NCBI GenBank assembly: GCA_038212275.1
Contig: JBBQUR010000014.1
Location: 73,533-137,532 of the forward strand
DNA length: 64,000 nt
Origin: Planctomycetota bacterium
Lineage (GTDB): Bacteria > Planctomycetota > B15-G4
Reading direction: 5' to 3'
The first letter of the stretch is position 1; every line of letters begins with the position of its first letter. Shown one piece after another: positions 6,264 to 63,520 of the stretch. A program made the translations under genes and the position numbers. Under the pieces are notes generated by a model. The model made no database searches and had not been told where the DNA came from. It saw only the letters and a list, made by a program, of their open reading frames with translations.

Positions 6264-6308
6264 GTCTGGAAATCTTAGCGTAGAGGGGACGAAGTCCATG
6301 CCGATAAG

Positions 6309-32613: not shown

Positions 32614-32973
32614 ATATTGATCCCGGGGTGCAGAATCTGAGGAGTCTAAGAGATCCTCGGGCCCAGCGGGAGGGGTTACCGGCCGGATCGCGGAGCCTGT
32701 TCCGCAGCGAGCCCTGCCCTCGCGTCCCGATCATCGCTGAGCGACCCGGGCTGTCCGCGGCCGGAATCCCGGCCCGCACCCGAGGTCGGCCTCAGCAGCG
32801 AGCAGCGCCCGAGATCTCCTCGAACCGTGGCCCCGGGGCCCACTCCCGGCCCCGCCGGCCCGGCCGCACCGGGCCCTCTCATGCGGGCGCAGCCTGCCAG
32901 CCCTCGCAACAGCCCCCACGCCGCGCGCCCCGTGCGCTGACGACGCCGAACTCCCGCAGAGCCCGCCCACCTC

Positions 32974-33008
32974 GCAGCCTTCGGCGGCGCCCCGCCGCCG
33001 AAGGCTGC
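32974..33008 (-). terminator. Perfect 15-bp-stem hairpin (gcagccttcggcggc / gccgccgaaggctgc, loop GCCCC) just downstream of XPB stop
   Basis: Arms are exact reverse complements; no U-tract. Confidence 0.45.
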
Positions 33009-33016
33009 GGGCTCTC

Positions 33017-33050
33017 GCGACATCGCCCGGCTACAGCCGGGCGATGTCGC
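33017..33050 (-). terminator. Perfect 16-bp-stem hairpin (gcgacatcgcccggct AC agccgggcgatgtcgc) overlapping XPB stop codon
   Basis: Arms exact reverse complements with 2-nt loop; includes the stop codon cta (33031..33033) in the loop-proximal arm. Confidence 0.45.
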
Positions 33051-34710
33051 GAATCTCGTACGTATATCCCTGCTCGGTGAGGAAGAGCTGGCGGTTGTTC
33101 GCGAAGTGTTCCTCGCGGCTGTCGCGGGTCACGATGGAATAGAAGATCGCCGGGCGCTTGTCGGACTTGGGGCGCAGGATGCGGCCGAGGCGCTGAGCTT
33201 CCTCCTGCCGGCTGCCGAAGGTGCCCGAGACCTGGATGGCCACGTTGGCATCGGGCAGGTCCACCGCGAAGTTGCCGACCTTGCTCACCGCGAGCAGCTT
33301 CAGGTCCCCGTCGCGAAAGCGTTTGTAGAGGTCCTCGCGCTCTTTCGTCGGCGTGCGTCCCGAGATGAGCGGGCAGCCCAGTTCGCGCGCCAGCTCGTCG
33401 AGCTGGTCGAGGTACTGGCCGATGATGAGCACGCGGTCGTCCTTGTGGCGTTCGACGAGCTGGCGCACGGTCGTGAGCTTGTCGGGGTTCTCGCTCGCGA
33501 TGCGGAACTTGTCGCGGCTGCCGGCCTGCTGGTAGGTGAAGCTCGCCTCGGTCACCAGCGGCAGGCGCACCTCCACGCAATGCGCCGTGGCGATCCAGCC
33601 CTGCCGCTCCAGGATCTTCCACGGCACGTCGTACTTCTTGGGGCCGATGAGCGAGAAGACCTCGTCCTCGTGGCCGTCCTCGCGCACGAGCGTGGCCGTG
33701 AGCCCGAGCCGTCGCCGCGCCTGGATTTCCGCCGTCACGCGGAACACCGGTGCGGGCAGCAGGTGCACTTCGTCGTAGATGACCAGGCCCCAGTCGCGCG
33801 CGGAGAAAAGCGCGAAGTGACCGAACTCGCCGGTCTGGCGGCGGCGATACGTGAGCATCTGGTAGGTGGAGATGGTCACGGGGCAGACGGCCTTGCTGTC
33901 GCCTGTGTACTCGCCGATCTGATCCTCGCCGAGCGTGGTCTTGTCGAGCAGCTCCGTGCGCCACTGCCGGACGGCGATCGTGTTCGTCGTGAGGATGAGG
34001 CACTGCGTCTGCAGCCGGTGCAGGCAGCCGATGCCGACGACGGTCTTGCCCGCGCCGCACGGCAGCACCACGACGCCGCTGCCGCCCTTCTCGGTGCCGC
34101 CCGCGTGGAAGACGTCCGCGGCCTCCGCCTGGTACGGGCGCAGGCCGAAGGGGCCGCCCGAGCCGAGGCAGGTCTCGCGCAGCGCGAAGGGCAGCGCGGC
34201 GCCCGAGGTGTAGCCGGCGAGATCCTCGACCGGATAGCCGATGCGGATGAGCGCCTGCTTGACCTCGCCGCGCAACGCCTCGTGCACCGTCAGGCCGCCC
34301 GGCACCGGTCGCCCGCGATCGAAGAAGCGCTTGAGCTGCGTGTCGCCGCCGATGCGCGCGAGCAGCGCGCTGTCCGGCGACACGAGCACGAGCGCCTCGT
34401 CCTGCCGCTGCAGGCGCAGGAGGCCGAAGCGCCGGATGTTGTCCTCGATGTCGCGCTCGACGTTGGGCGGCACCGGATAGCGCGATTGCTCGGTGAGGAA
34501 GCGGATGATGCGCTCGGCCGACAGTCCCGCCGCGGCGGCATTCCAGATGGAGAGCGGCGTGATGCGGTAGGTGTGCACGTGCTCGGGACTCTTCTCGAGC
34601 TCCGCGAACAGCGCGAGCATGTCGCGCGCCTCGACGTAGCCGTCGGCGTGCACCTCGGCGAGGATGGTGCGGTCCCCCTGGACCGTGAGCGGACGTCCGC
34701 TGCCGTTCAC
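33031..34710 (-). CDS. XPB/ERCC3-type SF2 DNA helicase
   Basis: Walker A VLPCGAGKT, DEVH box YDEVHLLPA, motif VI QRLGRILR; N-terminal damage-recognition-like domain; GTG start in GTGA overlap with uvrA-like stop. Confidence 0.85.
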   Translation of the reverse strand: MNGSGRPLTVQGDRTILAEVHADGYVEARDMLALFAELEKSPEHVHTYRITPLSIWNAAAAGLSAERIIRFLTEQSRYPVPPNVERDIEDNIRRFGLLRLQRQDEALVLVSPDSALLARIGGDTQLKRFFDRGRPVPGGLTVHEALRGEVKQALIRIGYPVEDLAGYTSGAALPFALRETCLGSGGPFGLRPYQAEAADVFHAGGTEKGGSGVVVLPCGAGKTVVGIGCLHRLQTQCLILTTNTIAVRQWRTELLDKTTLGEDQIGEYTGDSKAVCPVTISTYQMLTYRRRQTGEFGHFALFSARDWGLVIYDEVHLLPAPVFRVTAEIQARRRLGLTATLVREDGHEDEVFSLIGPKKYDVPWKILERQGWIATAHCVEVRLPLVTEASFTYQQAGSRDKFRIASENPDKLTTVRQLVERHKDDRVLIIGQYLDQLDELARELGCPLISGRTPTKEREDLYKRFRDGDLKLLAVSKVGNFAVDLPDANVAIQVSGTFGSRQEEAQRLGRILRPKSDKRPAIFYSIVTRDSREEHFANNRQLFLTEQGYTYEIRDIARL

Positions 34711-37700
34711 GTGCGTGCTCCGCGCCGGCCGCGCGGCCTGCCTTTGCCGAGGCCCGCTGCCGCGTCGACTCCGCCCGGGAGCACCGGCGCCGCGCGAAGG
34801 AAGCGGCCGGTGTGGCTCTGCGCGCAGGCCGCCACGGTCTCGGGTGAACCCGCGACGACGAGCTGTCCGCCTCCGGCCCCGCCCTCGGGACCGAGGTCGA
34901 TGACCCAGTCGGCCGACTTGATGACGTCGATGTTGTGCTCGATGACGACCACCGTGTTGCCCTGCTCCACCATGCGCTGAAGCACGACCAGCAGGCGCGC
35001 GACGTCAGACATGTGCAGGCCCGTCGTGGGCTCGTCAAGCACGATCAGGGCACGCCCCGTGCCGGGGCGACCGAGCTCGGCCGCGAGCTTGACCCGCTGG
35101 GCCTCGCCGCCCGACAGCGTCGTCGCCGGCTGCCCGAGCTTCAAGTACCCGAGCCCCACTTCGTCGAAGAGCGCGAGCTTGCGATGGATGCCCGTGTGGC
35201 CCTCGAAGACTCCCAGCGCCTGGTCCACCTCGAGGTCCAGCACGTCGGCGATCGAGAGCCCCTTCCAGCGCACCTCGAGCGTCTGGCGGTTGAAGCGCCG
35301 CCCGTTGCAGCTCTCGCACGGCAGCTGCACGTCCGAGAGGAAGTGCATCTCGATGATCTCGACGCCGCGGCCCTGGCAGGTTTCGCAGCGGCCGCCCGCG
35401 ACGTTGGAGGAGAAACGCCCGGCGAGGAAGCCGCGCATGCGCGCCTCGGGCGTCGACGCGAAGAGCGCGCGGATGTCGTCGAAGGCCCCGCAGTACGTGG
35501 CGGCATTGCTCGTCGGCGAGCGCCCGAGCGGCGACTGGTCGATCTCGAGCAGCCGGTCGAAGCAGCTCGCCCCGTCGATGCCGTCGAGCTTGATCGCGCC
35601 CTCGCCAAGGCCCTCGAGCTGCGCGCGCACCGCCGGCACGAGCAGCCCGGACACGAGGCTGGACTTGCCCGAGCCGGACACGCCGGTCACCACCGTGAAG
35701 AGCCCGGCGGGGAAGCGCACGTCGAGCCCTGCGAGGTTGTGCAGGCGCGCGCCACGCAGCTCGATCCCCTGCGCTCCCGGCTCGCGGCGGGCGCGCGGCT
35801 CCACGCGCAATGCCCCGGACAGCCAGCCGCCCGTCACCGAGTCGGGGTTGGAGAGCAGCGCGGACGGCGTGCCCTGCGCCACGATGCGTCCGCCCCGCGT
35901 GCCCGCGCCGGGCCCCACGTCGATGACGTGGTCCGCGGCTTCGATCGTCTGCTGGTCGTGCTCGACGACGAGGATGGTGTTGCCCAGGTCGCGCAGCTCG
36001 CGCAGCGTGTCGAGCAGGCGCCCCTGGTCGCGCGGATGCAGGCCGATGGACGGCTCGTCCAGCACGTAGAGCACGCCGACGAGGCGGTTGCCGAGCTGAC
36101 TGGCGAGGCGGATGCGCTGCGCCTCGCCACCCGAGAGAGTGGACGCGGGCCGGTCGAGCGACAGGTAGTTCAGACCCACGTTCACGAGGAAGCCGAGGCG
36201 ATTGCCGATCTCGCGCAGCACATCCACGGCGATGTGGCGCTCGTGGGCGGGCAGGTCCAGCGCATCGAACCATGCGCGCGCGTCTCCTACCGTGAGCTCG
36301 GCGACCTGCCGGATGTTGAGGCCGCCGACGGTGGTCGCGAGCGCCGCGGGCCGCAGGCGTCCGCCCTTGCAGCTCGGGCATGGCCCGACGTGCAGCAGCT
36401 CCGTGAGCGCGGCCTGCCACCAGCCGTCATTGCCCGCGCTGCGCCACCAGCCCTCCACCGTGGTGAGCAGGCCATCCCACTCCACGCGGTACTCGTAGCT
36501 GCGCGACTGGCCGGCGCTCTTGCGCGCATAACTGACCTCCACCGGGGCGCGCACGCCCGTGCCGCGCAGCGCGGCGGCGCGGAACTTGGCCGGCAGCGAT
36601 TTCCACGGATCACGCAGTTCGACGTCCATGGACTCCGCGAGGCGCACCAGCACCTGGCGCTGCAGGCTGTCGGGCCGCGCCAGGAATTTCCCGACGCGCG
36701 AATTCATCGCGCCGCCGAACAGAGGCCGGCCCGGGCTGTCGATGAGCCGCTTCTCGTCCGCGACCTGCTTGCTTCCCAGTCCCTCGCAGGTCTCGCACGC
36801 GCCGGCGTGGCTGTTGAACGAGAACATGCGCGGCGAGAGCTCGCCTTCCAGCGCCGTGCCGCAGCGCGCACAGGCGGCGCGCGCCTCGTAATCGATCGTG
36901 CTGCCGTCGGCGAGGTGGGCGCGCGCGAGGCCAAGTCCGCGCTGCTGCGCCGAGGCCAGCGCCTCGGCGAGGCGCGCGCGGTGTGCGGCATCCGCACTCG
37001 TGCGATCGATGATCAGTTCGACGCTGCGCTGCGCCGACACCTCGGGCAAGGCGTCGAGCCGCACCTCGACGCCGTCCAGTCGCGCGCGCACGAAACCGTC
37101 CTTGCGCAGCTCGGCGGACAGCGCCGCGATCTCGTCGGGGCGCGTGAGCGCCGTGCGGTGGTTGTGCTCGGCGCTCCACAGCGGCGCGGCGATGACCACC
37201 TTGGCGCCGCCCGCACGCGCGACGAGGTCCGCGGCCGCCGCCGAGGCACTCCAGGCCTTCAGCTCGCGTCCGCAGGTCCAGCAGTGCGGATGACCGACGC
37301 GCCCGAAGAGCAGGCGCAGATAGTCGTGCACCTCCGTGGTGGTCGCGACCGTCGAGCGGGGATTGCGCGTGGAGGTCTTCTGGTCGATGGCGATGGCTGG
37401 CGCCAGTCCGTCGATGGAGTCCACCGGCGGGCGGTCCATGCGCTCGAGGAAACGCCGCGCATACGTGGAGAGGCTCTCGACGAAGCGCCGCTGCCCCTCG
37501 GCGAAGATCGTGTCGAAGGCGAGGCTGGTCTTGCCCGAACCCGACGGCCCGGTGACCACCGTGAGCTTGCCGTGCGGCACGGTGACGTCCACGGACTGCA
37601 GGTTGTGCAGCGAGGCCCCGCGCACGACGAGGTCATGGCCGACCACCGCCGCCTCGGGCGACTTGCGCTTCGGGCGGATGGACGCCTTGCGCGGCAGCAG

Positions 37701-40526
37701 CACGGAAGCCAGCGCGCGCCCGGTGTGCGAGGCCTCCACCGCGAGCACCTGCTCCGGCGTGCCCACGGCCACGATGTGGCCGCCATCGCGGCCGCCCTCG
37801 GGGCCGAGATCCACGATCCAGTCCGCCACCTTCATCACGTCGAGGTTGTGCTCGACGACGATCATCGAGTTGCCGGCGTCGATGAGCCTCTGCAGCGCGG
37901 ACAGCAGCACGGCGACATCCTCGAAGTGCAGGCCCGTCGTCGGCTCGTCGAGGATGTAGAGCGTGCGCCCGGTGCTCGGCCGCGCGAGTTCGCTGGCCAG
38001 CTTCATGCGCTGCGCCTCGCCGCCGGACAGCGTCGTGGACGGCTGCCCGAGCTGCACGTAGCCGAGGCCGACGTCGAGCAGGGCGTCGAGGACGCGCCGG
38101 ATGCGCTTGTGATGCTCGAAGAAGGCGGCCGCCTCGGTGACGGTCATCGCCAGCACGTGGTCGATCGCCCGGCCGCGGTACAGGACCTCCAGCGTCTCGG
38201 TGTTGTAGCGGCGCCCCAGGCACTGCTCGCACGGCACCTCGACGTCCGCGAGGAACTGCATCTCGATGGTGTTCACGCCCGCGCCCTGGCAGGCCTCGCA
38301 GCGTCCGCCGGACACGTTGAACGAGAAGCGCCCCTTCGGATAGCCGCGCACCTGCGCTTCGGGCGTGCCGGCGAACACGTCGCGGATCAGGTCCATGAGG
38401 CCGGTGTAGGTGGCCGGGTTGCTGCGCGGCGTGCGGCCGATCGGCAGCTGGTCGATCTCCACGACCTTGTCGATGGCTTCGATGCCGGTCAGCGAGGAGA
38501 AGCTGCCCGGTGCGTCTTCCGCGTGGTGAAGCTTGCGCGCCAGCTCGCGCTTGAGCACGTGGTCCACCAGCGTGGACTTGCCCGAGCCCGACACCCCCGT
38601 GACCACCACGAGGCAGCCCAGCGGGAACTCGACGCTGATGTTCTTGAGGTTGAACTGATCCACGCCCGCGAGCGTCAGGAATTTGCCGTTGCCCGGGCGC
38701 CGCTGCGTCGGCACTTCGATGCGCCGGCGGCCGAGCAGGTAGTCGGTGGTCGGCGTGGGCGGACCGGCGAGCACATCGTCGATCGGGCCGCAGGCGAGCA
38801 CGTGGCCGCCGAGGCTGCCGGCGCCCGGCCCGAGATCCACGATGGAGTCGCTCGCGCGGATCGTCTCCTCGTCGTGTTCGACGACGAGCACCGTGTTGCC
38901 GCGATCGCGCAGCGCGTGCAGCGTGTCGATGAGCCGGCCATTGTCGCGCGGATGCAGGCCGATGGACGGTTCGTCGAGCACGTAGAGCACGCCCTGCAGG
39001 CCCGAGCCCACCTGGCTGGCCAGGCGCACGCGCTGGCTCTCGCCGCCCGAGAGCGAGCGTGCCTCGCGGTCGAGGCGCAGATACGGCAGCCCCACCGCCT
39101 GCAGAAAGCCGAGCCGGCTCCCGATCTCCTTGACGAGCTGGCGTCCGATGGCGGTCTCGCGCGGATTGAGTTCCAGCGCTGCGAACCACGCGACGGCATC
39201 CTCGACGGAAAGCGCGGCGAGCTCCGTGATGGGCACGTCGCGGAAAGTCACCGCGCGCGCCGCGGCATTCATGCGGCTGCCCTTGCACTCCGGACAGACG
39301 GCCGCGGAAAGAAAACGCTCCGCGGCCGCATGGCCGGGCGTGCTCGCTGCGCGTGCGATCGCGGGCAGGATGCCTTCGAAGGGCTTCGTGTCCTTGCCGC
39401 GCACCTCCTTGCCGCCGTCCTGCGACTTCCAGCTCCACTCGAGCGTGACCTCGCGCGTGCCCGATCCGTGCAGCAGCACGTGGCGCGCGCGCGCCGGCAG
39501 GTCCTTCCACGCCTTGTCCAGGTCGATGTCGAAGGCGGCGGCCACGGCCGCGAGGCTCTTCGGTCCCAGTCGCACGTAGCCGAGGTAGCCGCTGCGATCC
39601 ATGATCTTCAGCGCGCCGTTGCGGATGGACAGCCGGTCGTCGGCGATGAGCTTGTGCGCGTCGGGCTGCTGCGTGCTGCCGAGGCCGTCGCAGTCGGGAC
39701 ACGCGCCGTGAGGCGAGTTGAACGAGAACAGCCGGGGTTCCAGCTCCGGGAAGTCGCCGTGGCCGTCGGGGCAGGTGTTGGCGGTGGAGAAAGTCTCCGC
39801 GCTGCCGTCGTCGCCGCGCACGACCAGGAAGCCGTCGCCCAGCACGGCGGCGGATTCGATGGCCTCGGCGAGGCGCGCGCGGCGCTCGAGGTCGGGCTTG
39901 AGGCGGTCCACGACGAGCTCGATCGTGTGGCGGCTGTTGCGGGCCAGTTCGATCGGTTCGTCGAGGCGGCGCTCGGTGCCGTCGATCCACGCGCGCGTGA
40001 AGCCCTTGAGCAGCCAGCCCTGAAGATCCTTGCGGTACTCGCCCTTGCGATCGCGCACCACCGGCGCCAGCACGGCGATGCGCCGGCCGGCGTGCTTATG
40101 GAGGACGGTGTCCACGATCTGGTCGAGCGTCTGGCCCGAGACGCGCGCACCGCACTCGGGACAGTGCGGCGTGCCGAGTCGCGCATAGAGCAGGCGCAGG
40201 TGATCCCACACCTCGGTGATGGTGCCCACGGTCGAGCGCGGGTTCCTGTTCACCGTCTTCTGGTCGATGAGCAGCGTCGGCGAGAGGCCGTCGATGCGGT
40301 CGACCTTGGGCTTCTCCATGCGCCCGAGGAACTGCCGCGCGTAGGACGAGAGGCTCTCGACGTAGCGGCGCTGGCCCTCCTGGTAGATCGTGTCGAAGGC
40401 GAGACTGCTCTTGCCCGACCCGGACACGCCGGTGATGGTCGTGAGCGCGAGGCGCGGGATGGTCACGTCCACGTGCTGCAGGTTGTGCTCGCTCGCGCCG
40501 CGCACGACGATGTCGTTGAGCGTCAT
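34707..40526 (-). CDS. Tandem-duplicated UvrA (two complete UvrA-like modules, four ABC ATPase domains), 1939 aa
   Basis: Two repeats of GVSGSGKSSLAFDT...LSGGESQRVRLA...LYVLDEPSIGLH...GVSGSGKSTL...LSGGEAQR...LYILDEPTTGLH with Zn-finger CxxC pairs in each half; true start MTLNDIVV at complement 40526 (ATGA with suhB-like stop). Confidence 0.85.
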   Translation of the reverse strand: MTLNDIVVRGASEHNLQHVDVTIPRLALTTITGVSGSGKSSLAFDTIYQEGQRRYVESLSSYARQFLGRMEKPKVDRIDGLSPTLLIDQKTVNRNPRSTVGTITEVWDHLRLLYARLGTPHCPECGARVSGQTLDQIVDTVLHKHAGRRIAVLAPVVRDRKGEYRKDLQGWLLKGFTRAWIDGTERRLDEPIELARNSRHTIELVVDRLKPDLERRARLAEAIESAAVLGDGFLVVRGDDGSAETFSTANTCPDGHGDFPELEPRLFSFNSPHGACPDCDGLGSTQQPDAHKLIADDRLSIRNGALKIMDRSGYLGYVRLGPKSLAAVAAAFDIDLDKAWKDLPARARHVLLHGSGTREVTLEWSWKSQDGGKEVRGKDTKPFEGILPAIARAASTPGHAAAERFLSAAVCPECKGSRMNAAARAVTFRDVPITELAALSVEDAVAWFAALELNPRETAIGRQLVKEIGSRLGFLQAVGLPYLRLDREARSLSGGESQRVRLASQVGSGLQGVLYVLDEPSIGLHPRDNGRLIDTLHALRDRGNTVLVVEHDEETIRASDSIVDLGPGAGSLGGHVLACGPIDDVLAGPPTPTTDYLLGRRRIEVPTQRRPGNGKFLTLAGVDQFNLKNISVEFPLGCLVVVTGVSGSGKSTLVDHVLKRELARKLHHAEDAPGSFSSLTGIEAIDKVVEIDQLPIGRTPRSNPATYTGLMDLIRDVFAGTPEAQVRGYPKGRFSFNVSGGRCEACQGAGVNTIEMQFLADVEVPCEQCLGRRYNTETLEVLYRGRAIDHVLAMTVTEAAAFFEHHKRIRRVLDALLDVGLGYVQLGQPSTTLSGGEAQRMKLASELARPSTGRTLYILDEPTTGLHFEDVAVLLSALQRLIDAGNSMIVVEHNLDVMKVADWIVDLGPEGGRDGGHIVAVGTPEQVLAVEASHTGRALASVLLPRKASIRPKRKSPEAAVVGHDLVVRGASLHNLQSVDVTVPHGKLTVVTGPSGSGKTSLAFDTIFAEGQRRFVESLSTYARRFLERMDRPPVDSIDGLAPAIAIDQKTSTRNPRSTVATTTEVHDYLRLLFGRVGHPHCWTCGRELKAWSASAAAADLVARAGGAKVVIAAPLWSAEHNHRTALTRPDEIAALSAELRKDGFVRARLDGVEVRLDALPEVSAQRSVELIIDRTSADAAHRARLAEALASAQQRGLGLARAHLADGSTIDYEARAACARCGTALEGELSPRMFSFNSHAGACETCEGLGSKQVADEKRLIDSPGRPLFGGAMNSRVGKFLARPDSLQRQVLVRLAESMDVELRDPWKSLPAKFRAAALRGTGVRAPVEVSYARKSAGQSRSYEYRVEWDGLLTTVEGWWRSAGNDGWWQAALTELLHVGPCPSCKGGRLRPAALATTVGGLNIRQVAELTVGDARAWFDALDLPAHERHIAVDVLREIGNRLGFLVNVGLNYLSLDRPASTLSGGEAQRIRLASQLGNRLVGVLYVLDEPSIGLHPRDQGRLLDTLRELRDLGNTILVVEHDQQTIEAADHVIDVGPGAGTRGGRIVAQGTPSALLSNPDSVTGGWLSGALRVEPRARREPGAQGIELRGARLHNLAGLDVRFPAGLFTVVTGVSGSGKSSLVSGLLVPAVRAQLEGLGEGAIKLDGIDGASCFDRLLEIDQSPLGRSPTSNAATYCGAFDDIRALFASTPEARMRGFLAGRFSSNVAGGRCETCQGRGVEIIEMHFLSDVQLPCESCNGRRFNRQTLEVRWKGLSIADVLDLEVDQALGVFEGHTGIHRKLALFDEVGLGYLKLGQPATTLSGGEAQRVKLAAELGRPGTGRALIVLDEPTTGLHMSDVARLLVVLQRMVEQGNTVVVIEHNIDVIKSADWVIDLGPEGGAGGGQLVVAGSPETVAACAQSHTGRFLRAAPVLPGGVDAAAGLGKGRPRGRRGART

Positions 40527-46180: not shown

Positions 46181-47296
<1,116 letters not shown>

Positions 47297-47328
47297 GGGC
47301 AGCTTCTTGCCCGAAGGAGTTTTTCGTC

Positions 47329-47631
47329 ATGGCCACTTCGCCTCGAAAGAGCAAGCGCGTTCCCGGAACGCCCCCCAGCGCACGCGCTGATTCCGAGACG
47401 GCATCCACGCGCACCTCGTCGCGCTCGGCCAAACGCCGCAGCCCGAAGGAGCCGCCCGCGGACCCCGAGGTCCTCGAAGTGGAGCGCGTCGAGTTCCTGC
47501 GCGCGATGGACCGCTACAAGCGCAAGACCGGCAAGACCTTCCCCAGCTGGACGGAAGTGCTCGACGTGCTGCGCTCCATCGGCTGGAGTTCGCCGGCGCG
47601 CTTCGACGGCACGAGACACACGACGGGTTGA
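47329..47631 (+). CDS. Small basic hypothetical protein (100 aa)
   Basis: Good SD AAGGAG 7 nt upstream of ATG; Lys/Arg/Ser-rich N-terminus, conserved-looking C-terminal helix region EVLEVERVEFLRAMDRYKRKTGKTFPSW. Confidence 0.5.
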   Translation: MATSPRKSKRVPGTPPSARADSETASTRTSSRSAKRRSPKEPPADPEVLEVERVEFLRAMDRYKRKTGKTFPSWTEVLDVLRSIGWSSPARFDGTRHTTG

Positions 47632-47705
47632 GCGGCGGTGCGACGGCTTTGTTTCGCGGTCTCACCGGGGGTGCTGACCGCGCTGGGGCCGAGGAAGATG
47701 TGAGT

Positions 47706-47829
47706 CGCTTGGGGCGGGGGGTGCGCGGGGCGGGAGGATTGTCCGGCGCTGCGCCCCTGGGGCAACAGGACGCGTCATGGTTCCGGGAGCGGCGCCCTTC
47801 GCGCCGGACAAACCTCCCGTCCCGCGCAC
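47706..47829. repeat. Near-palindromic 109-125-bp element, copy A (29-bp imperfect terminal inverted repeats GTGCGCGGGGCGGGAGGATTGTCCGGCGC ... GCGCCGGACAAACCTCCCGTCCCGCGCAC)
   Basis: Read directly; reverse complement of copy A matches copy B with 2 mismatches over 109 bp; G-rich flank ggggcggggg extends the match. Confidence 0.8.
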
Positions 47830-48444
47830 GCCGACACACGTTTTTCCGTGCCGGGCGAGGCGGTCAGCACCCTCGGCGCTTGCGCTTCTCGACGCCGTCG
47901 CACGCCCGCTGAGGTTGAACGTCCGGACGGCGAGCGCGCCTGGCCGGTGTCTCGGGCGGAGCGGTGGCCCGGACGAATGATGAGGCTCTTCCGGAACGCG
48001 AGCGCTGCGCATTCGTGAGCCAGCGAACTGCGGGCCGCTTCGGCGGGTGCCTGACGTCTCCGCCGCTGCGTGACGCGTTCTCTGTGCCTGCCGCGCGCCG
48101 TGTTTATCCCGCGCAGAGCAGGACTCGCTGAGACCTGCGCGCCGAGAGGCACGCGCTCACCCTCTCGAACCGAGTGTCTCGCGCCGAGAATCCAGCGCTG
48201 CGCCGTGCACGCCAAGCATTGCCCGCTCGAGCATGGCGTGCTGAACATTCCGCACCTGAGCATCACGCGCCAAGCACCGCAATCTCCCCATCCCCGCTCA
48301 AGCGATGCCTGACCGCATCACGAGTTCACCACCACCTCATTGCGGAGAATGCGTTCCCCAAAAGCCCATGCGTGAGGCTCAGCGAAGCGCCCGCCGGGAC
48401 CCGCCCCACCCCCGCATGGCGCGGAACCCCGTGCCTCGGCGTGC

Positions 48445-48568
48445 GTGCGCGGGACGGGAGGTTTGTCCGGCGCGAAGGGCGCCGCTCCCGGAACCGTGAC
48501 GTGTCCTGTTGCCCCAGGGGCGCAGCGCCGGACAATCCTCCCGCCCCGCGCACTCCCCGCCCCATGCG
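48445..48568. repeat. Near-palindromic 109-125-bp element, copy B (inverted relative to copy A), 615 bp downstream
   Basis: gtgcgcgggacgggaggtttgtccggcgcgaagggcgccgctcccggaaccgtgacgtgtcctgttgccccaggggcgcagcgccggacaatcctcccgccccgcgcac + tccccgcccc flank. Confidence 0.8.
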
Positions 48569-48704
48569 ACTCCCGCGCATCTCGCCACCAGGGGCAGCCC
48601 CCGGCCAAGCAAAGCCGCGCCCCAGGCTAGCTCTCCCCAGCTGGAGTAGGCTTTCCAGCAACCGTCTCTCCCGACCCGATCCGCGACACAGTGAGGCTCC
48701 CTCC

Positions 48705-50264
48705 ATGTTCTTTCCGACGCCCATTCGTCCTGGTTCGCTCCTGCGCCCGACCGGCGCCGTGCTTCTGGTCGCCGCCGCCCTCTCGTCCGTGCCGCTCGTG
48801 GCGCAGGCCACGAGCACGAGCCTGGAGAAGTTCAAGCACAGTCCGGCCGTGACCTTCGACAGCTTCGGCAAGGCGGTCGCCGTGGAGGGCGACAGGGCGC
48901 TGATCACCGCCATTGGTGTCGACGGCAAGGGGGCCGCGTTCAGCTACCGGCGCCATGGCGACGCGTGGGACTTCTCGCAGAAATTCCGCGGCGCCGACAC
49001 GCTCGCGGGCGACGCTTTCGGGTTCAAGGCGCAGATCGCCGGCGACTACGCCGTGCTCAGCGGGCATCAGAAGGACAAGGGCGCCCTGTTCGATGCCGGC
49101 GCGGCCTATGTCTTCCACGACGACGGCACGACCTGGACGCAGGTGCAGAAGCTGGAGGCCCCCGACCCCGCGGCCTCGGATTTCTTCGGCTGGTCCGTCT
49201 CGATGGGCGGCGACCTCATCGTCGTCGGCGCCATCGACGACGACGACGGCGGCAACCTCACGGGCTCCGCCTACGTCTTCAGGCGCTCGGGACCGACGTG
49301 GGTGTTCGAGCAGAAGCTGCACGCTTCCGACGCCGGTACCGAGGACGAGTTCGGCTTCGACGTCGACACCGATGGCCAGACCATCGTCATTTCCACGCCG
49401 ATGGGCGGTCTCGGCGCGGTGCCGACCGGTTCGGTCTACGTCTTCAAGCACGACGGCACGAGCTGGGTCGAAGTGCAGCACATCGGGCCGGCGGACGGAG
49501 CCGCGACCGACTACTTCGGCTGGGACATCCAGCTCGACGGCAACCGCCTCGCGATCGGCGCGCCCAAGCGCGACCTCACGAAGCTCGACGGCGGCGCCGT
49601 CTACCTCTACCGCGACAACGGCACGCGCTTCGTGCTGGAAGACGAGTTCGCGCCGAGCAAGGTCTCGGCCTCGGATGTCTTCGGCTGGTCGGTCGCCCTC
49701 CAAGGCGATCGTCTCGTGTCGGGAGCTCCGAGCACGACGATCGAAGGCGGATCACCCGACCTGTTCGATGGCGCGCTGTACCAGTTCCACTTCAACGGGT
49801 CGCGCTGGGTGGAAGCGCACCAGTGGCTCAGCGCCGATGTGGCGGTGGCCGCCTGGCCCGGGCCCAACCTCGGTCAGTCCTGTGCGCTCGACGGAACGAC
49901 GGTCTTCGCCGGCGCGCCGTTCCACGACGGCGGCGCGATCAACTCAGGCGCAGCCTATCGCTTCGAACTCACGGACCTCGGCCTCGACGCGCTGCCGGAC
50001 TCCGTGCCCGCCGGCGGACAGCTGACCCTGACGACGGACGGCGGCCTCGCCGGAGCCAAGGCAGGACTCCTGGTGACGGCCTTCGGCGGAACGCCGATCA
50101 GCTACGTGATCTGGATCAGCGCCTTCGACGCGCAGGGAAAGTCGACGCTGGAGGTCACGGTGCCGGCCGTCGTGTCGGGCTTCGACGCCGTCATCGTCGC
50201 CGCAGGCTTCTGGCACGCCGGCCCCTTCACGCTCTCCAACCCGGTGACGGTGAGCTTCCAGTAG
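48705..50264 (+). CDS. Secreted FG-GAP repeat (integrin-alpha-like beta-propeller) protein
   Basis: Signal peptide MFFPTPIRPGSLLRPTGAVLLVAAALSSVPLVAQA; repeated D-x-FG-x-S/D-V...GAP units (DAFGFKAQIAGD, DFFGWSVSMGGD, DEFGFDVDTDGQ, DYFGWDIQLDGN, DVFGWSVALQGD). Confidence 0.8.
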   Translation: MFFPTPIRPGSLLRPTGAVLLVAAALSSVPLVAQATSTSLEKFKHSPAVTFDSFGKAVAVEGDRALITAIGVDGKGAAFSYRRHGDAWDFSQKFRGADTLAGDAFGFKAQIAGDYAVLSGHQKDKGALFDAGAAYVFHDDGTTWTQVQKLEAPDPAASDFFGWSVSMGGDLIVVGAIDDDDGGNLTGSAYVFRRSGPTWVFEQKLHASDAGTEDEFGFDVDTDGQTIVISTPMGGLGAVPTGSVYVFKHDGTSWVEVQHIGPADGAATDYFGWDIQLDGNRLAIGAPKRDLTKLDGGAVYLYRDNGTRFVLEDEFAPSKVSASDVFGWSVALQGDRLVSGAPSTTIEGGSPDLFDGALYQFHFNGSRWVEAHQWLSADVAVAAWPGPNLGQSCALDGTTVFAGAPFHDGGAINSGAAYRFELTDLGLDALPDSVPAGGQLTLTTDGGLAGAKAGLLVTAFGGTPISYVIWISAFDAQGKSTLEVTVPAVVSGFDAVIVAAGFWHAGPFTLSNPVTVSFQ

Positions 50265-56928: not shown

Positions 56929-59624
56929 CGCCGTCGTCGCGGATTCCCGAGCGCGAACCCGGGCAGCCGGCATCCGCTCGCGGCCGGGCGGAACAGCCCT
57001 CCGAGGAAGAGGTCACCTGCGGTCTCGTGAGGCCCGGCGAGGACATCCGCGCCGGCAGCACGGCGGAAGCCTTGCGCCAGGCGCTGCTGGACAACCTGCT
57101 CTCGGTGCAGGGCCGCACGCCCGACCTCGCCACGCCCAACGACTGGTACATGGCGCTGGCCCACACGGTGCGCGACCGCATGCTGCAGCGCTGGATCGGA
57201 ACGAACGTCGCGCTGCGCGGGCAGTCCGTCCGCGTGGTGGGCTACCTGTCCGCGGAGTTCCTCGTCGGTCCGCAGCTCGGCAACAACATGCTGAGTCTCG
57301 GGATCACGGAGGCGGTGCGCGAGGCGTGCGCCTGCCTCGGGCTCGACCTGCATGCGCTGCTCGACCTGGAGGAGGAGCCGGGCCTCGGCAACGGCGGGCT
57401 CGGCCGGCTGGCGGCCTGCTACATGGACTCGCTCGCCACGCTGCAGGTGCTCGCCATCGGCTACGGCATCCGCTACGAATTCGGCATCTTCGACCAGGTC
57501 ATCCGCGACGGCGCGCAGGTCGAGGTCGGCGACACGTGGCTGAAGCCCGGCCATCCGTGGGAGATCCACCGCCCGGAGATCTGTCACCGGGTGGGCTTCG
57601 GCGGGAGCACGGAGTGGTTCACCGACACGCACGGCATGGCGCGCAAGCGCTGGCTTCCGGACCGCGTTGTGCTCGGCGTCGCGTACGACGTGCCGGTGCC
57701 GGGCTACCGCGTGAACACCACGAACTTCCTGCGCCTGTGGAAGGCCGAGGCCGTCGAGAGCTTCGACTTCGCGGCCTTCAACACCGGCGACTACGAACGC
57801 GCCGTGGAGCAGAAGCTGAAGTCCGAGACGCTCACCAAGGTGCTCTACCCCAACGACGAACAGCTCCGGGGCAAGCAGCTCCGGCTCGAACAGCAGGCAT
57901 TCTTCACGTCGTGCTCGCTGCAGGACATGATCACCATCCACCTGAGCGGCAGGCAGCGGCTGGAGGGAGCGGAGGTCCGCTTCGCCGTGCAGCTCAATGA
58001 CACGCACCCCTCCATCGCGGTCGCGGAGCTCATGCGGCTGCTGCTCGACGAGCACGGCTGGAGCTGGGACGAGGCGTGGAAGGTCACGCACCGCACGCTG
58101 GCGTACACCAACCACACGCTGCTGCCCGAAGCGCTCGAGACCTGGTCGCTGCCACTCTTCCGGAGCGTGCTGCCGCGGCACCTGGAAATCATCTACGAGA
58201 TCAACCGCCGCTTTCTCGACGAGGTCCGGGCGCGCTGGCCCGGTGACGAGGCGCGAGTGGAGCGCATGTCGATCATCGACGAGCGCGGCGACAAGGCCGT
58301 GCGCATGGCGCACCTCGCCGTCGTCGGCTCCCATGCGGTGAACGGCGTGGCCGCGCTGCACACGGAACTGCTGAAGCGCCACCTGCTGCACGACTTCTTC
58401 GAATTGTGGCCCGAGCGCTTTCACAACGTGACCAACGGCGTGACGCTGCGCCGCTGGATGGCGCTCGCCAATCCCGGGCTCACGGAGTTGATCTCGTCCC
58501 GCCTCGGCGACGCGTGGCTCACGCATCCCGAAGAGGAACTCCCGCGACTGGAGTCCTTCGTCGCCGACACGGGCTTCCGCGAGGCGTGGCGCGCCGTGAA
58601 GCTGGCCAACAAGCGCGTGCTCGCCGAGGAGGTCCGCGCGCGACTCGGCATCGAACTGGACCCCGCGTCGCTGTTCGACATCCAGGTGAAGCGACTGCAC
58701 GAGTACAAGCGCCAGCACCTCAACCTGCTGCACGTGATCGCGCTCTGGTGCGAGCTGCGCCGCGGCGGGGCGGCTTCGACGCGATCCAGCGGGGCGGCGG
58801 CCGGTGCGGCCGGTGCGGCCGGTGCGGCGGCTGCGGCGGGCAGGGCGGGCAGGGCGGGCGCGACGGCGCGCGGCGCGCGGCCGGCACGCACCGTGATCTT
58901 CGGCGGCAAGGCAGCGCCCGGCTACTTCATGGCCAAGCTGATCATCCGGCTGATCCACGGCGTCGCGGAGGTGCTGGCCGCCGATCCGGCCACGCGCGAC
59001 CTGCTGCGCGTGGTCTTCATCCCGGACTTCAACGTGAAGCGCGCGCACCACATCTACCCGGCGGCGGACCTGTCCGAGCAGATCTCGACCGCGGGCATGG
59101 AGGCGTCGGGCACGGGCAACATGAAGTTCGCGCTCAACGGCGCGCTGACCATCGGCACGCTCGACGGCGCGAACGTCGAGATCCGCGAGGCCGTGGGCGC
59201 GGAGAACTTTTTCCTCTTCGGGCTCACGGCGGACGAGGTGGCCCGGCGCAAGGCCGACGGCTACCAGCCGCGCCGCCACGTGGACGAGTGCCCGGCGCTG
59301 CGCGAGGCGCTGGACCGGATCTCGGACGGGACCTTCAGCCGCGGAGACCGCAGCCTGTTCCAGCCGCTCGTCGACAACCTGCTGCACCACGACCCCTTCC
59401 TCGTGCTCGCCGACTTCGAGGCCTACGTCGCGTGCCAGCGCGCGGTCGAGGCCGCGTTCGCCGACACCGAGCGCTGGACCACCATGTCGATCCTCAACAC
59501 GGCGCGCATGGGGCACTTCTCCTCCGACCGCTCCGTGCGCGAGTACTGCGAGCAGATCTGGAAGACCGGCCCGGTGCAGGTCGAGCTGCCGTCGCTGGAT
59601 CAGCCGGGGCTGCCTCACGCCTGA
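56925..59624 (+). CDS. glgP: Glycogen/alpha-glucan phosphorylase with ~35-aa Ala/Gly-rich insertion
   Basis: [18 protein letters not shown]-lysine region [22 protein letters not shown]; insertion [34 protein letters not shown] before [13 protein letters not shown]. Confidence 0.9.
58795..58862. repeat. In-frame 9-bp repeats (GCGGCCGGT x3, GGGCAGGGC x3) inside glgP
   Basis: gcggccggtgcggccggtgcggccggtgcggcggctgcggcgggcagggcgggcagggcgggcg read directly. Confidence 0.75.
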
Positions 59625-59675
59625 GGGAACGGGGCATGCGGTGACGACACGGGCAGTTGCTAGGATCGGCCGCGC

Positions 59676-60374
59676 ATGACCGCTGCCGATTCCGGACACG
59701 AGCTGGTCGCCTGTCACGATTGCGACCTGTTGCATCACGTCAAGCCGCTGCCTGTGGGCACGACGGCGCGCTGCACGCGCTGCGGCAGCCTTCTCGCGCA
59801 GAATCGCCGCGACAGCCTGGACCACACGCTCGCGTGGACGATGGCCAGCCTGCTGCTGTTCATCGTCGCCAACAGCTTCCCGATTCTCTCCTTCGAGATG
59901 GGCGGGCGGGTCCAGGAGAACGAGCTCTTTTCCGGCTGCATCGAGCTGTACAGCCAGGGCTGGTGGCCGCTCGCGGCGCTGGTCTTCCTGGCCAGCGTGC
60001 TGGCCCCGGCGCTGCGCATCGCGGGCCTGCTCTACGTGCTCGTGCCGCTCAAGCTGGGACGGCCGCCGCTCAAGCTGGTGCCGGTCTTCCGCCTCGTCGA
60101 AGTGCTCGAGCCGTGGAGCATGCTCGAGGTCTTCATGCTCGGCGTGATCGTGGCCATCATCAAGCTCTCCGCTCTCGCGGAGGTCGTGATGAGCACCGGG
60201 CTCTACGCGTTCATGGGACTCATCATCACGTCCACTGCGGCGGTCGTCGTGCTGGATCCGGAACTCATCTGGCGGCGGGTGCCGCAGCAGGCGCGGACCG
60301 ATGCGTCCGGCGCGGGCGGATCGCGCCCGCCACGGGGGCGACAACCGGCGGCGCTCGCGGAGCCGAACGCATGA
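59676..60374 (+). CDS. pqiA: Paraquat-inducible protein A family, single-domain (first half)
   Basis: CHDCDLL...CTRCGS zinc-ribbon then 4 TM segments. Confidence 0.8.
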   Translation: MTAADSGHELVACHDCDLLHHVKPLPVGTTARCTRCGSLLAQNRRDSLDHTLAWTMASLLLFIVANSFPILSFEMGGRVQENELFSGCIELYSQGWWPLAALVFLASVLAPALRIAGLLYVLVPLKLGRPPLKLVPVFRLVEVLEPWSMLEVFMLGVIVAIIKLSALAEVVMSTGLYAFMGLIITSTAAVVVLDPELIWRRVPQQARTDASGAGGSRPPRGRQPAALAEPNA

Positions 60375-61057
60375 GCGCCGCGGCGGGAGGTCCCGGCGCC
60401 GCCGGAGGCGCGAAAGCCGCCCACGCCGTGCCGCTCACGACCGCGCGCGCCGCGGGCTTCGTCCGCTGCCACGCCTGCGGCCAGCTGGCGCGCCACCGCC
60501 GGCTCCCGCCCGGCAGCGAGGCAAGCTGCCCGCGCTGCGAGGCGCCGCTGCACCTGCGCAAGCCGAACAGCATCGCCCGCACCTGGTGCTTCCTCATCGC
60601 GGCCCTGATCATGTATCTGCCGGCGAACCTGCTGCCCGTGATGGCGGTCACGTACTTCGGGGCGAGCGAGCCCGACACGATCATGAGCGGCGTGAAGGTG
60701 TTCTTCTCGTCGGGCGACTATGCCATCGCCATCCTGGTGCTCATCGCGAGCGTCACCGTGCCGATGATCAAGCTGCTCGGCCTCGCCTACCTGCTGCTGT
60801 CGGTGCATTACCGCTGGGCATGGCGCCCGAAGGACCGCACGCGCCTGTACCGGGTCATCGAGATCATCGGGCGCTGGTCGATGCTCGACATCTTCATGAT
60901 TTCCATCCTCGTTGCGCTGGTCCGGCTCGACGCGATCGCGACCATCCAGGCCGGCGCAGGCGCGACAGCCTTCGCGGCGGTGGTCATCCTCACCATGTTC
61001 GCAGCGAGCAGTTTCGACCCGCGCCTGATCTGGGACTCTCTGGAGGACGTGCCATGA
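60371..61057 (+). CDS. pqiA: Paraquat-inducible protein A family, single-domain (second half)
   Basis: CHACGQL...CPRCEA zinc-ribbon then 4 TM; ATGA overlap with previous. Confidence 0.8.
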   Translation: MSAAAGGPGAAGGAKAAHAVPLTTARAAGFVRCHACGQLARHRRLPPGSEASCPRCEAPLHLRKPNSIARTWCFLIAALIMYLPANLLPVMAVTYFGASEPDTIMSGVKVFFSSGDYAIAILVLIASVTVPMIKLLGLAYLLLSVHYRWAWRPKDRTRLYRVIEIIGRWSMLDIFMISILVALVRLDAIATIQAGAGATAFAAVVILTMFAASSFDPRLIWDSLEDVP

Positions 61058-62649
61058 GCAAAGCCAAACCCGACGCACCCGCTCCGGGGGACATTCCCGG
61101 CGCGGAGGACGTGCCCGACGTGACGGTGAAGGTGCGCAGCGGCCCGTCCATCGTGTGGATCGTCCCCATCGTCGCGGCCCTCATCGGCGCGTGGCTCTGG
61201 TATGCGGCCGAGCAGGAGAAGGGCCCCACGATCACCATCACGCTGAGCACCGCCGAGGACATCGAGTCCGGCAAGACCACCGTGAAGTTCAAGAACGTGA
61301 ACCTCGGCGAGGTCGAGCACATCGAGATCAAGAAGGATCTCTCGGGCGTCCTGGTCACGGTGCAGACCAATCACCTCGCAAAACCTTACCTCCGCGAAGG
61401 CACCCGCTTCTGGGTCGTGCGGCCGCGCATCGGCGCGCGCGGCATTTCGGGCCTGGGCACGCTCGTGTCCGGCGCGTTCATCGAGATGGAGCCGGCAGCC
61501 ACGGGCGAGCCGTGTGTGGTGTTCACGGGCCTCGAGGACCCGCCCGTCGCGCCCATCGATGCGCCCGGCCTCACGCTGAAGCTCGACGCGCAGAATCTCG
61601 GGTCGCTGGATGTCGGCTCGGGCGTCTTCTTCAAAGGGGTTCAGGTCGGCCAGGTCGAGAGTCACAACCTCGCGGTGGACCGGCAGGGCGTGGACGTGAC
61701 CATTTACATCGATGCCCAATTCGCGCCGCTCGTGCACAAGACCACGCTCTTCTGGAACGCGAGCGGCTTCGATGCGTCTCTCGGTGCCGACGGACTTCAG
61801 GTGAGCATGCCGTCGCTGGACGCGCTCGTCAGCGGCGGCATCGACTTCGAGACGCCTGCGGAATCCGCAACCAGCCCGCAGGCCCGCAGCGGCGACGGGT
61901 ACGTGCTCTTCGGAACCAAGGCCATCGCATTGCTGCAAAGACCGCAGGAAGGCGTGACTGTGGTGATGTACTTCACCGGCACCGTGCGAGGGCTCGCCAT
62001 CGGTGCCCCGGTGGAGTTCCGAGGCATGCGGCTGGGAAGCGTCAAGGATTTCTGGCTCGAGTTCGACGCCGATACCCACGTGGCGCGCATTCCGGTGGTC
62101 TGCGGCATGGTGCGCAGCGTCAAACACCGCGTCGACACGGGCGAGAAGTCCACGCCGGAACAGGACCTGCAGGGTCTCATCGACCGCGGCCTGCGTGCGC
62201 GCCTCTCCACGGCAAGCCTCATCGCGGGCTCGCTCTTCGTGGATCTGGACCTGTTCCCGGAGCCTCCCATCGTGCTGGTCGGGGGCCAGAAGTATTTCGA
62301 GGTGCCGACCATTCCCTCCACGAGCGAGACGCTGAGCAACTCGCTGACGGAGGCTTCGGCCATCGTCGGGGACCTGCGCACCATGATCCAGCAGGTGGGC
62401 AGCAGCACGCCGCGCCTCATTGCCAACGTGGAGCAGACGACCGTCGCGATCCAGGACACGCTCGCGCAGGCCACCAATGCGCTGAAGAAGATCGAGGCGC
62501 TGGCTGTCGAGGGCGCGCAGATGCGGGGCCCGGCGCAGGATGCGCTGGCCGAACTCGGCAAGACGCTCCGCTCCGTACGCGTGCTCGCGAGCATGCTCGA
62601 ACAACATCCCGAAGCACTCATCCAGGGCAAGCCCGCAGGAGACCGCTGA
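61054..62649 (+). CDS. pqiB: Intermembrane transport protein PqiB (multi-MCE domain)
   Basis: N-terminal TM anchor IVWIVPIVAALIGAWLW, three MCE-like repeats, C-terminal helical region. Confidence 0.85.
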   Translation: MSKAKPDAPAPGDIPGAEDVPDVTVKVRSGPSIVWIVPIVAALIGAWLWYAAEQEKGPTITITLSTAEDIESGKTTVKFKNVNLGEVEHIEIKKDLSGVLVTVQTNHLAKPYLREGTRFWVVRPRIGARGISGLGTLVSGAFIEMEPAATGEPCVVFTGLEDPPVAPIDAPGLTLKLDAQNLGSLDVGSGVFFKGVQVGQVESHNLAVDRQGVDVTIYIDAQFAPLVHKTTLFWNASGFDASLGADGLQVSMPSLDALVSGGIDFETPAESATSPQARSGDGYVLFGTKAIALLQRPQEGVTVVMYFTGTVRGLAIGAPVEFRGMRLGSVKDFWLEFDADTHVARIPVVCGMVRSVKHRVDTGEKSTPEQDLQGLIDRGLRARLSTASLIAGSLFVDLDLFPEPPIVLVGGQKYFEVPTIPSTSETLSNSLTEASAIVGDLRTMIQQVGSSTPRLIANVEQTTVAIQDTLAQATNALKKIEALAVEGAQMRGPAQDALAELGKTLRSVRVLASMLEQHPEALIQGKPAGDR

Positions 62650-63317
62650 TGAATCGCCTCACGACACCTCGCCGTGCTCCACGCACCGATGCCCCCTTCG
62701 CCCGGAGCGCGATCCGGCACTCCGTCTCGCGGGCCGCAGCGTGCCTCGCTCTCTGTCTGGGGGCTGCGGCCTGCAGCTCGCCGCCAGCGCGCTTCTACTC
62801 GCTCGTGCCGCTGGCGGAGAAACCGTCGCTCCCTGCCCGCGCCGACACCGCCGGCTCGCTCGTCGGCCTCTCGACCGTGCACATTCCCGACATCGTGGAC
62901 CGGCCGCAGTTCGTGACCTCCGTCTCGGAGTACGAGCGGCGCATCGATGAGTACGCGCGCTGGGCCGAGCCGCTCGCGTCTCACATCACCGGGGTGCTCG
63001 CGGAGAACCTGGCCACGCTGCTCGCCCCCCGGCCCGTCCTGGTCGAGCCGGGCCGCGACGGTCGCGATGCGGCGATGATGCTCCGGATCGAGATCCTCCA
63101 CTTCGACGCGCGGGTCGGGGGCGACGCGGTGCTGACCGCGCAATGGAGCCTCACCGGTCCCACCGACACGACGACGGTCTTTGCGGAGGCTGCCGGGACT
63201 TGGAGTTCCCCCATGCGCGGGGACGATCCATCCCTGCTGGCCGAGGCCATGAGCAACAATCTCCTGCAGATGAGCCACGCGCTCGCGGAAGCCATCACTC
63301 ACCAGCCGACACCCTGA
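62649..63317 (+). CDS. PqiC/YmbA-like ABC-type transport auxiliary lipoprotein
   Basis: Lipobox LALCLGAAACSS; size and position after pqiB. Confidence 0.7.
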   Translation: MNRLTTPRRAPRTDAPFARSAIRHSVSRAAACLALCLGAAACSSPPARFYSLVPLAEKPSLPARADTAGSLVGLSTVHIPDIVDRPQFVTSVSEYERRIDEYARWAEPLASHITGVLAENLATLLAPRPVLVEPGRDGRDAAMMLRIEILHFDARVGGDAVLTAQWSLTGPTDTTTVFAEAAGTWSSPMRGDDPSLLAEAMSNNLLQMSHALAEAITHQPTP

Positions 63318-63429
63318 TCGTTTTCACTCGGGAGGGGCGGGCCGCATCGGCCGTCGCAAGCCCGATCCCCCTTTCGGCCCTCGGATGATCGCCCCCCCGG
63401 GCGGCGGCGCTGCCTGCCGCGCATCTTGC

Positions 63430-63520
63430 CAGCACGCCGGCTTCCAAGCCCGCAGGCTTCCCTGCACACAGGCTTCCCAGCACGCAGGCTCGCCCGTCGC
63501 AGGCTCGCCAATTGGCCGAT
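63430..63520. repeat. Degenerate ~15-bp tandem repeat (CAGGCTYSCC-N5) x5 plus CCAATTGGCCGATTGGCCAA palindromic motif, intergenic
   Basis: cgcaggcttccctgcaca/caggcttcccagcacg/caggctcgcccgtcg/caggctcgccaattgg. Confidence 0.6.

Follow-up and report, generated by a model that had tools for sequence, protein, structure and literature searches.

The stretch considered here, referred to as the window, comprises 64,000 nucleotides (nt) of contig JBBQUR010000014.1 from a Planctomycetota bacterium, and its subject is an island between genes at positions 47632-48704 that holds a repeat module built of two long inverted hairpins. Among homologues of its MtnA protein, the best-named ones all carry a Planctomycetota annotation. 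The genes on the near side of the island are, in order, those for PBP4, an MBL-fold protein and an epimerase, followed by purC, purE, mtnA and an open reading frame (ORF) of 100 amino acids (aa), while the far side begins with an FG-GAP repeat protein gene on the plus strand and zwf on the minus strand, beyond which ackA, a phosphoketolase gene, glgP and pqiAB-like genes are found. An original prediction, made from the sequence alone, had described the island as non-coding DNA in which two inverted copies (A and B) of a near-palindromic element of 109-125 bp flank a segment of 615 bp, and had likened this geometry to an invertible promoter switch or to a pair of MITEs (MITE, miniature inverted-repeat transposable element). 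The non-coding character has been borne out: GC content at the three codon positions is about 0.7/0.7/0.7 in the island versus about 0.66/0.50/0.90 in the flanking genes, and this lack of codon-position periodicity indicates that the ORFs inside the module are spurious. A local drop in GC content, placed by the prediction at 48200-48400, was also recovered (0.64 against 0.70 overall), as was the downstream protein with its FG-GAP repeats and signal-peptide-like N-terminus. The FG-GAP gene is a downstream neighbour and lies outside the element. Other intergenic gaps of 0.7-1.2 kb are present in the window, and the length of the island is by itself unexceptional.

The inverted-repeat observation was confirmed and cannot be attributed to chance. 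Copies A and B are reverse complements with 2 mismatches over about 111 nt, and the only repeated 31-mers of the window are those at 47721-47771 and 47779-47831 together with their partners in 48443-48553. The shared core extends over 130 nt at 97% identity by BLASTN, while the full inverted-repeat arms (47683-47831 and 48443-48591) measure 149 nt, are 91% complementary and are separated by 611 nt. As had been claimed, both copies are long, imperfectly palindromic sequences in their own right: a loop of 51 nt is enclosed by arms that measure 32 nt (91%) in copy A and 29 nt (93%) in copy B. The folding proposed as a check on that claim gave RNA-fold z values of -4.9 to -5.6 for the two copies, none of 200 shuffles being as stable. 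The 13-bp inverted pair reported on either side of copy A is real, and forms part of an outer inverted repeat of 51 nt at 73% identity, with which copy A is enclosed in a left-end hairpin of 280 nt (-194.7 kcal/mol, z -7.5); the hairpin of the right end is weaker, with a fold z of -3.7. Homology between the two ends runs, with indels, out to about 47640 and 48620, which yields terminal inverted repeats (TIRs) of about 220 nt and indicates that the island is one discrete module rather than two separate elements of 110-125 bp. The inverted copies of the prediction therefore stand, but what recurs as a unit is the whole ~980-nt module (Table 1). Its left terminus is GCGACGGCTTTGTTT at 47640-47654, and its right terminus, read as the reverse complement, is GCGCGGCTTTGCTT; on the plus strand the right terminus CAAAGCCGCGC, at about 48610-48620, was placed by symmetry with the left one and by a copy of the module at another locus (P0241, described below).

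Table 1. Positions of the repeat module, its parts and the two adjoining genes in the window.
Feature	Position	Strand	Description
Whole repeat module, ~980 nt	47640..48620	.	Left long hairpin, variable middle, inverted right long hairpin
Left end, 280-nt near-continuous hairpin	47631..47910	+	Outer stem 47631-47681 / 47860-47910 enclosing copy A
Core hairpin A	47718..47832	+	Arms 47718-47749 and 47801-47832; apex 47750-47800; covariance-model score 138 bits
Variable non-coding middle	47911..48384	.	Conserved just beside the hairpins
Right end, long hairpin, inverted, more degenerate	48385..48627	-	Encloses copy B; aligns to the left end with indels
Core hairpin B	48445..48553	-	Reverse complement of core hairpin A; covariance-model score 133 bits (minus strand)
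Conserved 100-aa ORF	47329..47631	+	Last gene of the purC-purE-mtnA cluster; GC at third codon positions (GC3) 0.84; without Pfam family
FG-GAP repeat protein	48705..50264	+	Pfam FG-GAP_2, 7 repeats; N-terminal signal-peptide-like segment

The window was compared with Logan contigs L110, L111 and L126, all from run SRR19962010, with the relatives L113, L114, L123 and L124, and with the JGI contig L125. The original prediction had suggested a search of the rest of the genome for further copies; such copies do occur, at the loci of L126, L125, P0241 and P0242. Five open-frame translations of the element were concatenated and searched against 5.8 billion proteins for spurious ORFs, of which three were recovered (P0241, P0242 and P0243). 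P0241, on a 297-kb NCBI contig, and P0242, on a 45-kb NCBI contig, each include the element twice, with some 170-190 aa between the copies and with frame and strand reversed from one to the other, both loci, flanks included, being read through these spurious translations alone. P0242 tracks the minus strand of the window module through the whole middle, including an identical stretch of 25 residues, and its abrupt divergence at the left terminus marks it as a different locus. The third ORF, P0243, corresponds to positions 262-903 of L125, whose first 856 nt, once reverse-complemented, align colinearly with window 47642-48543. The L125 module comes after an SBP gene and its stop codon, and further upstream lie a B12-radical-SAM gene and genes matching window 61619-63997. 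The three spurious proteins are 213-313 aa long, have a high content of R, G, P and A, lack Pfam domains, and are gene-calling artefacts across the module.

A second copy was reached in the sample of the window itself. Contig L126, found via the window gene 62649-63317 and derived from the same run as the Logan contigs of the window, reproduces window 59148-64000 and continues for 2.5 kb more, a part in which the radical-SAM and SBP genes seen in L125 are again present. Its last 38 nt, those past the SBP stop, are GCGACGGCTTGTTTCGCGGTCGCGCCGGGGGTGCTGAC, which is 92% identical to window 47640-47678. This second module (L126 7373-7410, equivalent to about 66.5 kb in window coordinates) begins 0 nt after the SBP stop, about 18.9 kb downstream of the first; it is orthologous to the L125 module and co-oriented with the first. 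Between the two co-oriented modules lie about 18 kb of core metabolism genes, namely the FG-GAP gene, zwf, ackA, the phosphoketolase gene, glgP, pqiAB, and the radical SAM and SBP genes.

At all four loci where both ends are visible (window, L125, P0241 and P0242) two inverted hairpins are found 400-600 nt apart, and at each of these assembled loci the middle points the same way with respect to the ends, which are asymmetric. Middles range in length between about 390 and 610 nt, those of P0241 and P0242 being shorter. The left boundary is sharp, with homology lost within about 6 nt across four copies that have unrelated flanks (window, L126, L125 and P0242). The end carrying copy A (the 'A' end) begins 0-8 nt past a stop codon at all three loci with a readable flank, the distance being 8 nt from the 100-aa ORF in the window. 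The family numbers, as lower bounds, two copies in the sample of the window and four or five loci in total.

Several further searches returned little. A search of P0242 against 1.84 billion protein representatives gave P0243 alone beyond the query, and the core-hairpin covariance model R1 found no further copies in 133 kb of the window and related loci, and the window itself holds only the two hairpin copies A and B. In a scan of genome contigs the 17-mer GGAGGWTTGTCCGGCGC gave at least 109 chance matches, with none carrying the element among the matches listed. A scan of metagenome contigs for TTGTCCGGCGC and GCGCCGGACAA separated by 40-62 nt yielded 8 unrelated palindromes; this is a weak negative, as L125 664-786 fits the pattern and was missed, which indicates that the collection lacks sample 3300050184, the source of L125. 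Nothing was found for the conserved apex in viral contigs, nor was there any match in distant BLAST searches of the plasmid and phage collections.

The effect of the module on assembly could be observed directly, with short-read contigs breaking at the elements. L111 stops at 47694 and L110 starts at 48557, both within the module, and the contig end at which L125 begins also lies inside a hairpin. Were A and B the sole repeats, breaks in a k=31 graph would be expected at about 47750 and 48524, and the actual breaks fall 56 and 33 nt short of these points. We infer that the end of L111 reflects a further copy in the sample whose sequence matches exactly from 47664 on, a position that fits the last difference between the window and L126 copies, at 47663. 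Synteny is likewise interrupted here. In the relatives L113 (81% nucleotide identity) and L114, mtnA is also followed by an orthologue of the 100-aa ORF, of 102 and 94 aa respectively, after which unrelated convergent genes begin within 9-22 nt and no module is present; synteny with these relatives ends at about 47613, i.e., at the module. Orthologues of the FG-GAP gene in L123 and L124 have unrelated neighbours on both sides and no module. These differing flanks place the module at a synteny breakpoint, and the repeats flanking about 18 kb may have mediated a rearrangement, synteny ending exactly at the first module.

Comparison of the window with L125 has revealed an uneven pattern of conservation. 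Identity reaches 94% in the apex of hairpin A and 86% in that of hairpin B, is 84-90% in the core arms (84-88% for hairpin A) and about 72% in the outer stems, and falls within the middle from 66% beside the B-side hairpin (48261-48384) to 46-56% in the centre, where a gap of 48 nt occurs; neighbouring protein-coding DNA is 81-90% identical between the genomes. An alignment of four long hairpins, among which two pairs are near-duplicates, has 88% of its cells paired. Pairs changed on both sides number 12, compared with 5.8 +/- 1.6 in shuffles and 1-5 when the partners are slid. Compensatory cases include a core-stem GG replaced by AT in both arms, an A.A mismatch of the window that is a C-G pair in L125, and an outer stem in which GCGAC/GTCGC has become GGGAC/GTCCC. 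Between genomes, changes in the outer arms of the left hairpin go together with changes in its inner arms, an argument for their staying in cis, and both copies in one genome share variants, indicating that they evolve in concert. With so few and such closely paired sequences, the covariation is supportive of a maintained palindrome without being conclusive, and it would fit selection on an RNA or DNA hairpin and homogenisation of palindromes alike.

The island belongs to a family of dispersed, non-coding repeats that is specific to this lineage of Planctomycetota and is probably non-autonomous and of a MITE-like or foldback-like kind. Each copy measures about 0.8-1 kb, with ends formed by TIRs of about 150-220 nt, each a hairpin of 110-280 nt, around a fast-evolving middle of 400-600 nt, and copies at different loci directly follow the stop codons of genes reading into the 'A' end. 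A non-coding interior, inverted repeats at both ends and dispersed copies in one genome, as expected of a MITE, were all found. The Correia, ERIC, QMITE and RUP/SPRITE families of MITEs resemble the module in being non-coding, bounded by TIRs and dispersed in intergenic DNA beside gene ends, and in forming very stable stem-loops that break assemblies and serve as rearrangement points (PMC10969869). The interpretation offered by the original prediction is thereby supported in part: other loci, sharp boundaries and assembly breaks uphold a dispersed repeat, but not an independent pair of 110-bp MITEs. Foldback transposons, the FB-type elements of eukaryotes, have long, internally repetitive TIRs built of tandem subrepeats. 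The module shares with them TIRs that make up about half of the element, a variable non-coding middle and the capacity of the whole element to fold back, but each of its ends is one long hairpin instead, and the likeness is an analogy only, no evidence of relationship having been found.

A number of observations weigh against this assignment. Prokaryotic MITEs are usually shorter than 500 bp and AT-rich, with repeats of 4-30 bp (PMC10969869), so that the module, at about 980 nt in size, 150-220 nt in repeat length and 70% in GC, lies outside their usual range; the 113-nt core hairpin alone, whose arms are 29-32 nt long, is of a size typical for MITEs. The module has no known parent insertion sequence. 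A target-site duplication is not visible: for boundaries within 47640-47646 and 48617-48621, direct repeats of at least 3 nt were absent in the one copy with both flanks visible; such duplications decay with age (PMC10969869). No cognate transposase or autonomous element was found among the scanned ORFs of the window, nor any recombinase, integrase or other transposase domain, which agrees with the prediction that no recombinase is nearby. The Pfam scan behind this result covered 42 ORFs, namely most of the crude GC3-based gene calls and four ORFs in gaps; outside it stood the short genes 62649-63317 and 63701-64000 together with purC, purE and mtnA, four of these five having unrelated precomputed Pfam domains and the truncated 63701-64000 being without any domain evidence. 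Among the relatives retrieved via MtnA and FG-GAP there was no clean empty site, the downstream flank differing too. The family is also rare in databases, with the three spurious ORFs recovered among 5.8 billion proteins. Transposase-bound ends usually have their extreme termini best conserved, and here it is instead the hairpin apex, which hints at selection on the hairpin.

If the dispersed-repeat reading holds, the module would spread, or would once have spread, with the help of an enzyme encoded at another place in the genome, a transposase or recombinase acting in trans. A settled copy would act passively, both as a very stable 3' hairpin on the upstream transcript, with a terminating or 3'-stabilising effect, and as a site where homologous recombination can rearrange the chromosome, while its position upstream of the FG-GAP gene would be incidental. 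Literature searches led to reviews of MITEs and of repetitive extragenic palindromic (REP) sequences, REP doublets forming hairpins (REPINs) and bacterial interspersed mosaic elements (BIMEs), but to no account of such an element in Planctomycetota. The module would represent a new repeat family for the phylum, with an unusual foldback build of very long self-complementary ends. In practical terms, it fragments short-read assemblies of the lineage, marks synteny breakpoints and misleads annotation via spurious ORFs.

Other explanations have to be weighed, among which the least improbable, although still unlikely, is that the hairpins are functional RNA or single-stranded DNA structures under selection, with mobility secondary or absent. 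Such hairpins would serve as a terminator or stabiliser in the 3' untranslated region, as a bidirectional insulator after convergent units, or as a binding site for a structure-specific protein. This explanation accommodates the roughly 110 base pairs kept by compensatory changes and the hairpin apex (94%) and core arms (84-90%), whose identity at least matches that of neighbouring coding DNA. It also suits the placement of the 'A' end just past stop codons at three loci, where the G.U pairs are on the sense strand and this strand is co-directional with the upstream gene. The sense strand also folds more stably (-95 kcal/mol) than the antisense strand (-84 kcal/mol). However, there is no conserved T-run, the TTTTT at 47842-47846 being missing from the other three copies; a length of 280 nt far exceeds what a terminator needs; and Rfam has no match for the island. 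The covariation comes from the four partly duplicated sequences described above, template switching or gene conversion can homogenise palindromes without selection, and the constant pairing of inverted hairpins around a middle of 400-600 nt is left unexplained.

A further variant, with a lower probability again, would join selection to mobility: the large hairpins would be recognised, as single-stranded DNA or as RNA, by a dedicated enzyme acting in trans on a scale about ten times the usual one. This could take the form of a partnership like that between REPINs and REP-associated tyrosine transposases (RAYTs), or of a hairpin-specific recombinase system, and the DNA lying between modules, such as the 18.9-kb segment flanked by the direct copies, might be moved, inverted or insulated by such an enzyme. 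The gradient of conservation, from apex through stems to termini, with a core at least as conserved as neighbouring genes, would then be the recognition footprint, and this pattern is the one feature that could repay more work. REPINs and BIMEs resemble the module as inverted palindromic pairs with a spacer, located extragenically after the 3' ends of genes and showing paired stem changes, but their REPs measure 20-40 nt and their spacers tens of nt, so that the module exceeds them about tenfold in scale, its hairpins being 110-280 nt and its spacer 400-600 nt long (PMC3116915, PMC3337134, PMC2817692). Inverted hairpin doublets were found at four loci, and a left end just past the stop codon of a gene at three, whereas short units accompanied by a RAYT were not: no Y1-transposase (RAYT) gene occurs among the scanned window ORFs, the GTAG/CGTC tag is not established, and copy number is seemingly low compared with the hundreds seen in REPINs. 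On account of its unit size, a REP reading proper was rejected.

The invertible switch of the original prediction finds no support. Recast as an inverton present at several loci, it would hold a promoter in the middle that is flipped by a trans-acting invertase, so that neighbours such as the secreted FG-GAP protein vary in phase; this is slightly less probable even than a dedicated hairpin enzyme. Known invertible promoter switches include fim, hin and the Mpi-type invertons of Bacteroides, and trans-acting invertases exist, Mpi of Bacteroides fragilis being a master invertase that serves a multi-locus regulon. The geometry does fit, with inverted repeats around 400-600 nt directly upstream of a gene for a secreted protein, as in these switches, and the occurrence of the same repeats at several loci recalls a master-invertase regulon, as does the concerted evolution of the two arms in one genome. 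Nevertheless, the repeats, at 150-220 nt, are hairpins themselves, 5-10 times longer than the 10-40-bp repeats of known invertons and self-complementary. The second copy and its orthologue follow the SBP and radical-SAM housekeeping cluster, and the scanned ORFs of the 64 kb contain no recombinase domain, adjacent or otherwise. A middle that keeps one orientation at four of four loci, left-hairpin arms that co-vary and hence remain neighbours, and a centre of low conservation argue in the same direction. No match to the sigma-70 consensus was detected in 47300-48900, although promoters of Planctomycetes may differ from that consensus. The suggestion that the 615-bp segment carries a promoter or a non-coding RNA is weakened by the same result, by the divergence and variable length of the middle, and by Rfam: at gathering thresholds, Rfam 15 yielded a tRNA at 21624-21697 as the sole pass in the window, and under permissive settings the island matched generic miRNA-hairpin models alone, at 38 bits versus a gathering score of 168. 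Read-level evidence should be required before a surface protein gene with long inverted repeats upstream is taken to be phase-variable.

Finally, it is very improbable that the island is no more than an inverted duplication confined to this locus, or a product of faulty assembly through a chimeric join or foldback read, for instance, without wider meaning. Only two hairpin copies lie inside the window, and synteny breaks on both sides of the island, as a mis-join across a repeat could produce. This reading is largely refuted by the L125 and L126 copies: two-hairpin modules occur in independent assemblies (L125 from JGI and the two NCBI contigs), and Logan short-read contigs of the same run reproduce both outer junctions exactly, together with the start of the second copy. 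A mis-join across repeated modules in the source assembly may have occurred, but it would alter the flanking genes and not the existence of the module. Other candidates were considered and set aside. The arms GGAGGATTGTCCGGCGC and GCGCCGGACAAACCTCC lack the R'' (RYYYAAC) and R' (GTTRRRY) core sites of an integron attC, and an integron cassette array does not suit inverted copies, housekeeping flanking genes and scanned ORFs without an integrase. Small-ORF and non-coding RNA gene readings were rejected for want of a coding signal and of an Rfam match, and a replication origin was rejected because the GC skew shows no inflection.

Some minor observations concern the vicinity of the module. The 100-aa ORF that precedes it has a basic, low-complexity N-terminal half and a conserved C-terminal half. 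The 13-mer GGGGTGCTGACCG of the outer stem (47668-47680 and 47860-47872) occurs a third time at 47273-47285, in the 3' end of mtnA and 395 nt upstream of the outer-stem one, the chance of such an occurrence anywhere in the window being estimated at about 1%. A palindrome of 12 nt, TCCCCAGCTGGA, is found at 47540-47551 within the 100-aa ORF and again at 48634-48645, in the 85-nt gap between the right end of the module and the start of the FG-GAP gene.

Elsewhere in the window, 1.16 kb between tgt and a HEAT-repeat gene (5145-6308) were assigned no gene by the GC3-based caller, and the ORFs there have no Pfam match. On the minus strand, positions 34707-40526 encode a protein of 1939 aa with two full UvrA domain sets (UvrA_inter x2, UvrA_DNA-bind x2 and ABC), which resembles a duplicated or fused UvrA. 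Directly beside it are encoded an XPB/ERCC3-like helicase at 33031-34710 and, at 30442-32613, a Helicase_C_3 protein, the whole minus-strand group at 30442-40526 constituting an unusual repair-like cluster.

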